IMG/VR virus record: IMGVR_UViG_3300028654_000012
Coordinates: 1-64,000 of that record
Reading direction: 5' to 3' (one strand)
Source: a virus
DNA length: 64,000 bases
The position numbers and the translations under genes were made by a program. The notes below the pieces were generated by a model. It searched no databases. It was not told the origin of the DNA and was given only the letters and a program-made list of their open reading frames with translations. Below, piece after piece: positions 3,522 to 35,278 of the stretch (position 1 is its first letter; the number at the start of each line of letters is the position of its first letter).

Positions 3522-4400
3522 ATGGCATTAGTACCTAAAGTCATTACAAGTCTAATTAATGAAGAAATTATTTTAGACGACGTAAGAGGTTTTGCAGGCG
3601 GAGAGGTTCGTATTCCCGCTCTAGCTGCTAATCTTGATCTTACCACGATGGCAACAGAAGATGCTTTGGCAGCTTCTTTCCATCTAGCACACATCGCTAA
3701 TGTAGGAGATGTTACGGTTAACCAAGGTTTTACAGTTGGGGTACCTTTTCCTGCAGCGCCGTTCACAGGTAATCCATATCCTGATGCATCTATGGGTTAT
3801 GCTCTTTCAGCTTCTTCCACAATTACCAACGTAGGTGCTTCGGTAATTACAGGAGACCTTGATCTTTATCCTGGAACTTCAGTAACTGGCTTTCCTCCAG
3901 GAGTTGTACATGGGGCGCAAAATATTGCTAACGCTACTGCCCAGTCTTCACAGGCATCAGCTCTAGCAGCATTTACTGCAGCTAACGCACTTGGCGGTGC
4001 AACAGTTCTTACAGGAGATCTACATACTCATAGTCCCTTAGCTCCTGGCGTCTATTCGTACGCTTCATCTGCAGCCTTGACGGGAACACTAGTATTAGCG
4101 GGTTCTCCCTCTGATACATGGGTTTTCCAGATTGGTACTACGTTAACAACCGCATCTGCTTCTGTAATGTCCATGTCGGGCGGAGCAGTAGCGAGTAACG
4201 TACTCTGGGCAGTAGGCTCTTCAGCTACTCTCGGTACAGGTAGTACATTGGAAGGAAATGTTATCGCTGACGCAAGTATTTCTTTGAACGGCGGTAATAC
4301 AGTTAATGGACAGTTGGCAGCTCTTACCGGCGCGATTACAATCGCAGGCGCTAGTACGGTCACTGCTCCTAGTAGCTTCAATGGCGTAACGTGGGCGTAA
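3522..4400 (+). CDS. DUF3494 ice-binding-like domain protein with an N-terminal putative virion-anchoring module
   Basis: About 3798-4365 carries the DUF3494 pattern YALSASSTITNVG...GDLDLYPGTSVTGFPPG...PGVY...LTGTLVL...WVFQIGTTLTTAS...NVLWAVGSSATLGT...GQLAALTGAITI. The first ~70 aa align with the N-terminus of the 39141 fibre. Confidence 0.85.
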   Translation: MALVPKVITSLINEEIILDDVRGFAGGEVRIPALAANLDLTTMATEDALAASFHLAHIANVGDVTVNQGFTVGVPFPAAPFTGNPYPDASMGYALSASSTITNVGASVITGDLDLYPGTSVTGFPPGVVHGAQNIANATAQSSQASALAAFTAANALGGATVLTGDLHTHSPLAPGVYSYASSAALTGTLVLAGSPSDTWVFQIGTTLTTASASVMSMSGGAVASNVLWAVGSSATLGTGSTLEGNVIADASISLNGGNTVNGQLAALTGAITIAGASTVTAPSSFNGVTWA

Positions 4401-4421
4401 TTAGGTAGTTTTAATCAGGGC

Positions 4422-31598: not shown

Positions 31599-34500
31599 TG
31601 GCTTATTACAGGGACGGTAATTATTATGGTGACGGTAATTATTATGGGGCATCTTCAGATTCCCCTATTAATCTCAGTTACTATTATACCGATATAGATA
31701 ACGTCTTTGTGTTCTCTTGGACATTTAATAACGATCTATTTACGCCGATATTACCTACATTCGATTACGAATTGCAGCTAGATTTGGTAGACACTTTTAA
31801 TTCTCCTGCACTTTTGGACTATAAAACCACCTCTATTGTAGGTACTTCTATATCTGGATCTAATCCTGCTACTACTATTATAGGAGGCACTCTTATTATT
31901 AGTGTAGGTGGAGATGCCCCTATAACTATCACTTTAGGTACAGACCCTACGGGAGCTACCATAGCTAGCGATATTCAAGCTCAGGTGAGTGCATTCTACC
32001 CAGGCTTTACGGCGGTATATACTACGATATACACCCTTACTTCAGGAACAACTGGGGCAGATAGTTCAGTAGAGGTGGTAGGTGGTACTAATGCAGCCGC
32101 TTTAAAGCTAGGTACCGATAATGGAGGTACCGAAACTGATGGTACTCTCATTACAAGTTCTACTACTTCAGGCACTTCGGTGTCAGGAGCTTTCCCAGCT
32201 ACATCTGCGTACGCAGGGGATACTCTCACTGTTAATTTAAATAATGATGGCCCTCAAACGATTACACTTTCTACAGATGCTACAGGCTTACTTGTGGCGG
32301 CAGATATTCAAGCTAAGATACAGGCTCTCACAGCCAACATGGCTTTCAATCAAGCGGCGTATACAGGATTTACTGCGACATTCTTAGGCAATAATGATAC
32401 GGGTGTATACACTTTAACGTCTGGAACCTCGGGACTAGGTAGTTCAGTAGTAGTTACTGGACCTTCAATTGCGCCAGCAATGAATCTAGGCGTAGCTAAT
32501 GGTGGAACGGAAACTGTGGGTACCTCTATTAATTTACCAGGAATATCTTTTCAAAATGGTAATGTATATAAAGGATTTGCCGTACCGGTATATACTAGAG
32601 CTGCTAAGCCCATTACGTTTTTCGCACGCGTTAGAATTTTATTTGGCGCAACAGTTGGAAGTTGGTCGGATGTCCTTCTTGCTACTACATTAATAGATGT
32701 GACACAGCAAGAGGTAAGTAATCTGATAAGTAACTTGCCTGATCAGCATGTATATCCTTATGACGAAGCATATAAAACTGTAACTAGAACGACTTCTAAT
32801 CTTTCTACCAATTTAGGTAAGGTTTATTGGGCCTATGCGTTAGAGTTTGATGATGCCAACCTAGAAGCTCAGCTGGCTGATAATGACGCGGATATTTTTA
32901 GAGCTAGAGACTCTAGATTCTTTTCCATCTGGGGATATCCTGTTGGATTTCAGAAACCTTCCACTATGCAGTATGTGGATTATCGTAATATTATTAATGA
33001 ATTTAGGCTAGCTTCTTTCGCAGGTAGTACCGTAGAGGCTGTAAAGTTAGTAGTGAGTTCTTTCACAGGGATTGACCCCACTATTACTCCTTTCGCTCAA
33101 ATTTTAAATTTTATAACATCTAGCGAACAAACTGAGACTTATACTATTCCTAGTATAGGCCCTTACATTATCACCTTAGCTAATCTTCCTAGAAATACTC
33201 CTACCATTCCAGGCTTTCAGTATACGAATGGAGTTCCAGGTCCTGAGGAGTATTCGGACGGAACATCTGTGTCAGCTACTTTTGCTGCTACTAATCTTAC
33301 AGGTACTATTACAATCAACTTAGATGGGGATGGACCAAGGAAAATTACACTAGCAGCGAATACTACTGGTGCGGCTATCGCGGCTGACATTCAGACTAAG
33401 ATGAGAGCTCTTACTGCAGCTAATCCTGTCAATCAAATAGCTTATGATGGTTTTACCGCAGTATTCAGCGGGGGACTTTATACTCTTACATCAGGAGCTA
33501 TTGGGTTAAATAGTTCAGTAGTTGTCACAGGACTTTCAGATGCAGTTAAGTTGAAATTAGGTGTAGCTAATGGTGGAACGGAAACTCCTGGATCTACGTC
33601 TTCTGCAACCTATGCTCTTCTTGCTAGCTCTACTATTACTAACGTAGGGCCTACGTTAGTTAATGGTAATCTTGATTTATATCCAGGCTCTTCAGTAACA
33701 GGTTTTCCTCCAGGCACTGTTTCAGGAGTTCAAAATATTGCTAACACTGCCGCGCAGACTGCAAAGACGAATGCTAACAACGCTTTTATTGCGGCCAACG
33801 CGATTGGAGGTGCTACCGTACTTACAGGAGATCTAAGTACTTACAGCCCTCTAGCTCCTGGCGTTTACAAGTATACCTCTTCAGCAACGCTTACAGGTAA
33901 TTTAACTTTAAATGGGCCTCCAACTGCCACATGGGTTTTTCAAATTGGTAGTACTCTGACGACAGCTACTTCAGCTTCTGTTACCTTATCCGGAGGAGCT
34001 GTCGCTAGTAATGTACTCTTCGCGGTAGGCTCTTCAGCTACTTTAGATACCTCAACTTTATTTAACGGCAATATTATTGCTCAAGCTAGTATTTCTCTGA
34101 ATGGAAGTAATACTGTCAATGGACAACTAGCAGCTCTTTCAGGGGCTATCACCATCGCAGGGGCAAGTACTATCTCAGCAGGCTCTATTTCCTCAGCGGG
34201 AACTTCAGTATCAAATACATCTCCCGCTACTAATCTTACAGGTACTGTAACAATTAACCTTAATGGAGATGGACCCCGAACTCTTACTTTAGGATCGGAT
34301 GCTACTGGAGCAGCTATTGCTGCAGATATTCAGACACAGATTCGTGCGCTTACAGCGATCAGCCTTCCTAATCAGCTGGCGTATGATGATTTTACAGCTA
34401 CATTTAGTAGTCTTAATAATCAGTATACTCTCACTTCAGGACTTTCAGGAGCGAGTAGTTCTGTCGTAGTTACAGGGGCTTCTTACGCAGTAGATTTGAA

Positions 34501-35278
34501 ATTAGGCGTAGCTAATGGTGGAACGGAAACTGTGGGTATGCCTATATTAGGGTTTTTCTCAGTTAATTTTATTACAGGAGTACTTACTTTCAATGCTACT
34601 AGTGCGGGAGAAACGGTTTCTGTAACCTATCTAGATCAAGCAGATATTTACTCTGTTTTAGAATCTCCTACAGTAGAAGCTCATACTATTCCAAGTATTT
34701 TTTCTTATATTGTAACTTTGGATAATCCTCCAGCCAATTGTCCTTCTGTAGGATTAGTACTTCCTGGAACTGTACAGGTGACTCATGGCTCTGCTAGCGT
34801 CGTAGGTACAGGTACTACTTTTACGACTAGCTTTAGTGTAGGATCTAAATTTGTTACTATAGTTGCGGGTAACGTTAGTACTACTTACACTGTCGAGTCT
34901 ATAACAGATAATTTTCATTTAGCAATTAGTTCAACATATGAAGAGTCTAATGCGGCTACTGCGGCTTATAGTAATTTAGTGGAAGCATTTACATTTACTA
35001 ACAACAATACTCCCGGGCCTAATCAGTTCTCAGTTGATTTTATCGCGGGAGAGCTTATTTTTAATGCTGCAAATGCCGGAGCAGCTATTGTTGTTACTTA
35101 TTTACCTCTCAACCAAGTCCCTCCTCCTCCAGTCGTTTACAATAGATTGGCAGTAGGGGCGAGTGTAATTATTACAGTAAATAATCCAGCAGATTTCGTT
35201 TTAAATACGTCTAACATTGAATTTTTATTAGATCAGATAATTCCCGCACATGTAGAGTACATCCTGGTGGTTAACTAA
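31598..35278 (+). CDS. Large baseplate wedge/tail protein (gpI-like core) with four repeats and one DUF3494 domain
   Basis: Core RFFSIWGYPVGFQKP...YR...GSTVEAVK.VVSSFTG and terminal LDQIIPAHVEY. DUF3494 at about 33611-34177. Confidence 0.75.
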   Translation: MAYYRDGNYYGDGNYYGASSDSPINLSYYYTDIDNVFVFSWTFNNDLFTPILPTFDYELQLDLVDTFNSPALLDYKTTSIVGTSISGSNPATTIIGGTLIISVGGDAPITITLGTDPTGATIASDIQAQVSAFYPGFTAVYTTIYTLTSGTTGADSSVEVVGGTNAAALKLGTDNGGTETDGTLITSSTTSGTSVSGAFPATSAYAGDTLTVNLNNDGPQTITLSTDATGLLVAADIQAKIQALTANMAFNQAAYTGFTATFLGNNDTGVYTLTSGTSGLGSSVVVTGPSIAPAMNLGVANGGTETVGTSINLPGISFQNGNVYKGFAVPVYTRAAKPITFFARVRILFGATVGSWSDVLLATTLIDVTQQEVSNLISNLPDQHVYPYDEAYKTVTRTTSNLSTNLGKVYWAYALEFDDANLEAQLADNDADIFRARDSRFFSIWGYPVGFQKPSTMQYVDYRNIINEFRLASFAGSTVEAVKLVVSSFTGIDPTITPFAQILNFITSSEQTETYTIPSIGPYIITLANLPRNTPTIPGFQYTNGVPGPEEYSDGTSVSATFAATNLTGTITINLDGDGPRKITLAANTTGAAIAADIQTKMRALTAANPVNQIAYDGFTAVFSGGLYTLTSGAIGLNSSVVVTGLSDAVKLKLGVANGGTETPGSTSSATYALLASSTITNVGPTLVNGNLDLYPGSSVTGFPPGTVSGVQNIANTAAQTAKTNANNAFIAANAIGGATVLTGDLSTYSPLAPGVYKYTSSATLTGNLTLNGPPTATWVFQIGSTLTTATSASVTLSGGAVASNVLFAVGSSATLDTSTLFNGNIIAQASISLNGSNTVNGQLAALSGAITIAGASTISAGSISSAGTSVSNTSPATNLTGTVTINLNGDGPRTLTLGSDATGAAIAADIQTQIRALTAISLPNQLAYDDFTATFSSLNNQYTLTSGLSGASSSVVVTGASYAVDLKLGVANGGTETVGMPILGFFSVNFITGVLTFNATSAGETVSVTYLDQADIYSVLESPTVEAHTIPSIFSYIVTLDNPPANCPSVGLVLPGTVQVTHGSASVVGTGTTFTTSFSVGSKFVTIVAGNVSTTYTVESITDNFHLAISSTYEESNAATAAYSNLVEAFTFTNNNTPGPNQFSVDFIAGELIFNAANAGAAIVVTYLPLNQVPPPPVVYNRLAVGASVIITVNNPADFVLNTSNIEFLLDQIIPAHVEYILVVN

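Follow-up and report, generated by a model that had tools for sequence, protein, structure and literature searches.

The first 64,000 nucleotides of the IMG/VR virus record IMGVR_UViG_3300028654_000012 (hereafter the window; the full record is linear, 116,673 bases long and about 56% complete by CheckV) encode four complete DUF3494 (PF11999) domains, which lie in the tail sheath, in two baseplate-distal or fibre-like proteins and in a small protein whose gene follows the capsid gene. DUF3494 is the commonest microbial ice-binding fold, yet the majority of its members belong to habitats that lack permanent ice. Our analysis supports a virion that displays modules of this fold on its tail; for the capsid, it is gene order that points to attachment. 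As an accessory cassette, the domain moves among virion genes, and it is under purifying selection. We lean, with a confidence only slightly better than even, towards a model in which the modules would act as a generic multivalent adhesin, much as the immunoglobulin (Ig)-like domains of phages do.

A first-pass annotation, made from the DNA letters, had proposed that the particle is an ice-binding virion. What stands of this proposal is that intact DUF3494 beta-solenoids are built into virion genes and recur in related phages; ice binding or freeze protection as the selected function is not supported so far, given the rhizosphere origin of the DNA and the soil-bacterial relatives of the domain. 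The annotation also knew of no description of such a virion-wide arrangement, in agreement with our literature search, which found no paper on DUF3494 domains built into virion genes.

Four DUF3494 domains and their conserved face

The four domains score 132.5-182.2 bits against PF11999, for which the gathering cut-off is 28.7 bits, and each copy covers the profile in order, from positions 1-3 to positions 204-208, and is thus complete and not permuted. They lie within a few bases of the places given in the first-pass annotation, which had also called them complete. Pairwise identity among the four copies is 53-72%, and there is no fifth copy across the whole 116.7-kb record.

Protein 1 (292 residues; 3522-4400, on the plus strand, which carries all long open reading frames (ORFs) of the window) has its DUF3494 domain at residues 97-276 (nucleotides 3810-4349; 146.7 bits), preceded by an N-terminal stretch of 92 residues of unassigned fold. 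As previously annotated, the gene comes after the capsid gene: the ORF at 2288-3262 (plus strand) encodes the major head protein (phrog_2522, 4e-35) and anchors the head module. The slot directly after the capsid gene is kept for a DUF3494 protein in the relatives L171 and L172, and we consider protein 1 a candidate head-associated or decoration protein. The second copy belongs to the contractile tail sheath (775 residues; 16880-19207, plus strand), in which the match at residues 76-255 (nucleotides 17105-17644; 132.5 bits) lies within an insertion of about 210 residues (residues 57-267, nucleotides 17048-17680). The sheath is identified by PF17482 (43.2 bits, cut-off 26.9), phrog_2839 (5.5e-30) and synteny with the related genomes G001 and G002; PF04984 stays below threshold (22.7 bits, cut-off 31.4).

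The remaining two copies are encoded next to the baseplate wedge genes and are both flanked by R, a repeat of about 115 residues. Protein 3 (674 residues; 29574-31598, plus strand), which is baseplate-distal, consists of an N-terminal part, R (30207-30557), DUF3494 (residues 348-532, nucleotides 30615-31169; 182.2 bits) and R (31179-31520), and has a precomputed PF27067 (YomF_N) hit on file. Protein 4 (1226 residues; 31598-35278, plus strand), which is fibre-like, has two R copies (31829-32146 and 32159-32524), a third (33248-33592), DUF3494 (residues 675-855, nucleotides 33620-34162; 142 bits), a fourth R (34190-34540) and a C-terminal part. Protein Atlas leads for the N-terminal parts of these two proteins reached a score of at most 0.8 and a template modelling (TM) score of at most 0.34, and were used only for the name of PF27067. 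Three of the domains had been placed in core tail genes by the first-pass annotation, an assignment that stands for the sheath, whereas proteins 3 and 4 are better described as baseplate-distal or fibre-like. The annotation had seen no obvious signal peptide, and by eye, with no predictor used, we likewise see no signal-like N-terminus in protein 1 or the sheath. Functional ice-binding proteins are expected to be secreted or tethered to cells; here, the domains are internal to the sheath and to the 674- and 1226-residue proteins.

An AlphaFold2 model of protein 1 has a predicted local distance difference test (pLDDT) score above 90 over residues 90-285 and is poor over the N-terminal 88 residues. 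It consists of a helix (residues 138-155) and stacked short strands that together form a triangular beta-solenoid with one long alpha-helix, in line with the fold anticipated in the first-pass annotation. When this model was compared with the PDB using Foldseek, the top 31 matches were all DUF3494 ice-binding proteins; the closest was AnpIBP (7bwx/7bwy; TM score 0.88-0.89 by target, root-mean-square deviation 1.6-1.9 Å, 40-43% identity), and EfcIBP (6eio) was also among the best. A sequence search with protein 1 recovered 7bwx (2e-31) and 6eio (1e-30) together with 5uyt, 3wp9, 4nu2 and 3vn3. Copies 2-4 probably share this fold, judging from their identity of 53-72% to copy 1 or to each other.

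In AnpIBP, the ice-binding site is on the B-face, and S153Y and T156Y mutants retain 17% activity (PMC7277481). The AnpIBP strand S153-G158 is identical in protein 1, where it reads SSATLG in the HMMER alignment, and this motif, in which S233 and T236 of protein 1 are the equivalents of S153 and T156, is invariant in all four window copies. At the 27 outward positions of the B-face, as placed by sequence alignment and not by coordinates, Thr, Ser, Ala and Gly account for 89-96% of residues in the window copies, compared with 55% domain-wide, and the outward face contains no bulky residue and at most one charged residue. The same four residues account for 90% of outward positions in 70 other viral copies and 87% in 56 soil-bacterial copies. 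Outward B-face columns are conserved to the same degree as buried columns and above the rest of the domain (permutation p = 0.0025 for viral and 0.013 for bacterial copies), a result that holds when columns fixed by the search patterns are removed. Because the face is conserved in viral and bacterial copies alike, it is constrained across the whole subfamily. Such a constraint fits an unchanging ligand and singles out neither this phage nor cold habitats.

Gain, loss and exchange of the cassette

Comparison with related phages shows how the domain comes and goes. Two related sheaths, P0003 (79% identical) and P0004 (75% identical), are without exactly residues 57-267 and align cleanly on both sides of the gap; it is for the sheath that DUF3494 is thus shown to be dispensable in close relatives. 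G001 (a 117.8-kb fragment) and G002 (192 kb, complete with terminal repeats) are syntenic with the window and have four PF11999 domains each, one of them in the sheath, with capsid proteins about 70% identical and sheath cores 34-36% identical to those of the window; another genome, G005, has five PF11999 matches above the cut-off. In G001 and G002, the sheath domain is inserted about 130 residues further along than in the window, and because the insertion sites differ, the sheath must have gained the fold at least twice, at two sites. The 773-residue sheath of P0005 (55% identical to that of the window, on a contig of 59,579 bases) has no DUF3494 domain, and copies of the 115-residue repeat occupy the site at which G001 and G002 hold DUF3494. 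One and the same sheath loop therefore takes different cassettes.

Exchange is also evident beside the capsid gene. In L172, a relative from another metagenome with the same gene order, the capsid protein is identical to that of the window at 322 of 324 residues (99%), whereas the adjacent DUF3494 protein is only 54% identical overall to protein 1, giving a sharp mosaic boundary between window positions 2288-4400 and L172 positions 6802-8969. The domain of this L172 protein is 72% like copy 3 of the window and 56% like its positional counterpart, copy 1. In a maximum-likelihood tree with weak deep branches, copies cluster by lineage more than by position: copies 1 and 4 of the window are sisters (support 96/98), and four G001 and G002 copies from two positions form one clade (100/100). 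Within the window, the entire R-DUF3494-R cassette is 52% identical over 444 residues between proteins 3 and 4. Between the window and its 88% relative, the ratio of nonsynonymous to synonymous substitution rates (dN/dS) is 0.06 in the sheath insert, compared with 0.04 in the core and 0.11 in the middle part of the sheath, values that are rough with dS near 1.

The R repeat is a second promiscuous module. A local hidden Markov model (HMM) finds seven copies in three tail genes, 56-63% identical to each other, namely the two in protein 3, the four in protein 4 and a single one (37942-38289) in a 251-residue protein (37690-38445, plus strand; 1.7e-45). Its motifs are GTSVS, LNGDG, ITLGTDATGAAIAADIQ, YTLTSG and SSVVVTG. 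R has no Pfam hit, and a sequence search of the PDB gave nothing below E = 0.3; among 1.84 billion representative proteins, it has 446 matches at E ≤ 0.001, which include sheath proteins and one flagellar-hook-like protein. Within the structural module, an endonuclease VII gene (15746-16195) lies about 700 nucleotides upstream of the sheath gene, and in viral loci L007-L084, few named neighbours of DUF3494 ORFs are commoner than endonuclease VII and HNH genes. Homing-type nucleases could move the cassette by local gene conversion.

Beyond these relatives, two short peptide patterns retrieved at least 141 confirmed stretches with the domain from IMG/VR; some of these contigs may be prophage edges. 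All 66 non-redundant viral carrier ORFs pass PF11999, and a few of them also match families of baseplate J, sheath, tail fibre, minor tail, major tail, head or head decoration proteins. Genes for head decoration, baseplate, fibre and capsid proteins are found among their immediate neighbours, along with many genes for endonuclease VII and HNH proteins. The fold is rare in described viruses. None of the PHROG families matches the domain in the 66 viral ORFs, and in BFVD the fold occurs in A0A3G5A745, A0A3G5ACG7 and A0A3G5AEI1, all from Hyperionvirus, a giant virus from metagenomes, and in no phage protein. These two resources are better indications of rarity than a tblastn search in which two of the domains were queried against 50,697 records of cultured phages; it gave no match even at E = 1, but this does not amount to absence, since the low-complexity filter probably masks queries so rich in Thr, Ser, Ala and Gly. 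In the papers searched, PF11999 is mentioned on viral contigs solely as a presumed protector of the host, namely on Arctic contigs, where the genes were read as serving host cryoprotection (PMC11515562).

The closest cellular relatives, at 45-52% identity, come from Streptomyces, Kitasatospora, Nonomuraea, Acidobacteriota, Myxococcota and similar groups (more than 591 hits). Among cellular relatives, the partners of DUF3494 include autotransporter barrels, LPXTG anchors, Big_5, He_PIG and SpaA stalks, and subtilisin fusions, which suggests adhesins or targeting modules. In a class-level tally of prokaryotes, PF11999 is present in 6 of 81 genomes, a figure with no bearing on temperature.

Candidate functions of the displayed face

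In the reading that we favour, the four domains belong to an accessory cassette that moves among virion genes and is seated in a loop of the sheath, in the two baseplate-distal, fibre-like proteins and in the small protein encoded after the capsid gene. With four such modules in virion genes, the particle probably displays many copies of one flat, conserved Thr/Ser-rich face; going by sheath symmetry and tail length, the sheath alone would contribute about a hundred copies or more. The arrangement would provide weak multivalent adhesion, as in Ig-like domains of the Hoc type, to a surface that is abundant, chemically regular and not tied to a single host. The ligand could be exopolysaccharide, a glycan of the cell envelope, root mucilage or a mineral surface; ice is a less probable candidate. 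Adhesion of this kind would retain virions near their hosts or pre-orient the tail. Recurrence of the domain in viral structural modules, the adhesin-like cellular relatives and the rhizosphere habitat all support the modules being adhesins.

Several points weigh against this proposal. For protein 1, gene order is the sole indication of virion membership. Outward exposure of the sheath insert is what the known architecture of contractile sheaths would predict, and we rely on that architecture because an AlphaFold2 model of the sheath from a seven-sequence alignment was unusable (mean pLDDT 41, predicted TM score 0.27). Ice would account for a face that does not vary from phages to bacteria at least as well as a glycan would. 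The domain is 40-43% identical to a proven ice-binding protein and keeps the two residues that are crippling when mutated, and, to our knowledge, ice binding is the only experimentally supported activity of PF11999 itself.

A possibility that we regard as doubtful is that the displayed faces bind ice and thereby provide freeze-thaw protection, local inhibition of recrystallisation or retention at ice-water interfaces in seasonally frozen soil. On this view, a clade of large soil phages would cover the tail, and perhaps also the head, with functional ice-binding domains. The strong homology to proven ice-binding proteins, the close fold match to AnpIBP, the identical S153-G158 strand with its two invariant residues, and an outward B-face that is 94% Thr, Ser, Ala and Gly, free of bulky and almost free of charged residues, all speak for this reading; the retention of this face across phages and bacteria is what an invariant ligand predicts, and genes of the same Pfam family have been reported on Arctic viral contigs. 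The habitat, by comparison, is not the cryosphere. At least 30% of the sampled words of the window occur in each of 13 sequencing runs labelled rhizosphere metagenome, three of which may be the source sample of the window itself; the climate and sites of these runs are not stated, and runs with less than 0.2 of the words were left out of this reading. Moreover, the cellular homologues nearest to the copies belong to ordinary soil bacteria and have the same Thr/Ser-rich face. The first-pass annotation had held that equal occurrence of the domains in relatives from warm habitats would count against ice; the same domains are present in relatives from habitats that are not cold, which leans that way, although temperate soils can freeze. 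Across 1512 soils, PF11999 is listed with the most abundant Pfams (PMC11237643), and the family is treated both as ice-binding and as substrate-binding (PMC12337378). The copies score 64.7-84.3 bits against the NCBIfam ice-binding equivalog NF045625 (IBP_CFB), far from its cut-off of 400 bits, a shortfall that denies equivalence to that narrow group and not ice binding itself. In addition, the subtilisin and adhesin-stalk fusions of the relatives point to a general targeting module, and we see no clear benefit for a single particle, since recrystallisation inhibition is by our own reasoning an effect of bulk concentration.

We consider two further explanations improbable. In one, the flat faces have no external ligand and form a structural brace, packing on neighbouring subunits so as to stabilise the capsid, the extended sheath and the periphery of the baseplate. 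In crystals, the ice-binding faces of this fold do tend to pack against each other (PMC7277481), the sheath insert is under strong purifying selection and the face is conserved, all in keeping with a brace; yet sheaths 75-79% identical to that of the window manage without the domain, an insertion site that varies by lineage is hard to square with a fixed lattice contact, and the module is also found on fibre-like proteins and on bacterial cell-surface proteins. In the other, to which we give similarly little credence, the modules recognise a particular structure on the host surface and set the host range. Two copies do sit in fibre-like proteins beside the baseplate, and the modules are swapped between close relatives in the manner of receptor-binding parts, as the contrast between the 99% identical capsid protein and its 54% identical neighbour illustrates. 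A host-range determinant would not, however, be expected to have a face that is nearly unvarying among phages with sheath cores only about 35% identical, and between phages and bacteria; the sheath surface is not the site of primary receptor binding, and separate fibre genes are present, with collar, BclA_C and propeller domains.

By gaining, losing and trading one conserved face, phages have set up a natural experiment on the purpose of that face. Were ice binding to be true, these would be the first ice-active virions and a natural multivalent scaffold for ice binding. If another ligand is bound, the family name misleads annotation, given that viral PF11999 genes have already been read as cryoprotection genes, and the module would be a new class of phage accessory adhesin beside the Ig-like domains. 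Either way, the clean pairs of sheaths with and without the domain are constructs for direct tests.

Genome context and likeness to known systems

The window is part of a phage genome and not a tailocin. Its left half comprises the head and contractile-tail module, and its right half contains replication genes (helicases, a DnaC-like loader, a DnaB-like helicase and a UvsX-like recombinase). Bacillus phage G and cluster C mycobacteriophages have capsid proteins that are only 29% and 25% identical, respectively, to that of the window. The baseplate context of proteins 3 and 4 is fixed by a gp25-like wedge protein (27643-28113, plus strand) and a gp6/J-like wedge protein (28117-29550, plus strand), which between them match phrog_2669, phrog_43 and phrog_6, the last at 5.2e-33. 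The fibre block ends with a tail fibre (35281-37260, plus strand) that has a phage tail collar domain (PF07484, 65.9 bits) and keeps its syntenic position in both G001 and G002. Downstream of the fibre genes, positions 39141-46590 hold two very large ORFs of 1165 and 1315 residues; the former has a beta-propeller of the Vgb_lyase/SGL type, and the final 57 residues of the latter are 61% identical to part of the G001 fibre region.

Between the head genes and the neck lies a block of adhesin-like genes (4988-13300), encoding a BclA_C-ended protein (4988-6823), a glycine-rich protein (9458-10147), a Hoc-like Ig I-set protein (10135-10548), a fibre-tip-like protein (10552-11505) and a beta-propeller protein (11462-13300). 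DUF3494 aside, the particle seems to invest heavily in surface binding. After the sheath gene, the ORFs at 19214-19777 and 19797-20327 have no PHROG or Pfam hit, and both match a single post-sheath ORF in G001 and G002 (30% and 37-39% identity); they are probably tandem tail tube paralogues. In the right half, QueC-like and QueE-like genes (57517-58200 and 61679-62395; phrog_1550 at 3e-72 and phrog_2076 at 3.9e-57) suggest that the phage modifies its DNA with 7-deazaguanine. The window contains no tRNAs.

Contractile sheaths such as T4 gp18 and phiKZ gp29 combine a conserved core with lineage-specific domains inserted on the tail exterior. The sheath of the window is built likewise, from a core and a lineage-specific insert, and we know of no described sheath in which the insert has the DUF3494 fold. 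Ig-like domains occur on phage structural proteins such as Hoc, tail tube and fibre proteins, on several proteins per particle; they are gained and lost by insertion, have been associated with adherence to mucus and are thought to provide weak, non-specific adhesion. DUF3494 resembles them in that one domain type is present on several structural proteins, is dispensable in close relatives and recurs in other phages, and differs in being a flat-faced beta-solenoid and not an Ig sandwich. Both types are represented in the window, which also encodes the Hoc-like protein at 10135-10548.

The PF11999 genes of the Arctic viral contigs belong to the same Pfam family; there, they were interpreted as cold protection for the host (PMC11515562), and here they are parts of structural proteins. 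As cited in PMC12337378 (its reference 28), diatom adhesive trail proteins have ice-binding-like domains, which are assigned to a separate Pfam family (PF20597), resemble PF11999 little in sequence and set a precedent for an ice-binding-like solenoid that adheres to surfaces other than ice. With AnpIBP (7BWX/7BWY, from Antarctomyces psychrotrophicus) and EfcIBP (6EIO), the phage domains share the fold (TM score 0.85-0.89 by target, 35-43% identity), the capless build and B-face strands with a matching in-out pattern, SSATLG corresponding to the S153/T156 strand of AnpIBP. Those two proteins are free, secreted and single-domain, come from ice-associated organisms and have measured activity, whereas the phage copies are internal to virion proteins of a rhizosphere phage and known from sequence. 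Closer in design are the ice adhesins SfIBP_1 (6BG8) and IBPv (5UYT), which match protein 1 by sequence and fold and in which DUF3494 is likewise joined to other domains and displayed on a surface. They are tethered to polar bacterial cells, whereas the phage domains are carried by a virus particle and partnered with a sheath, baseplate parts and a 115-residue repeat.

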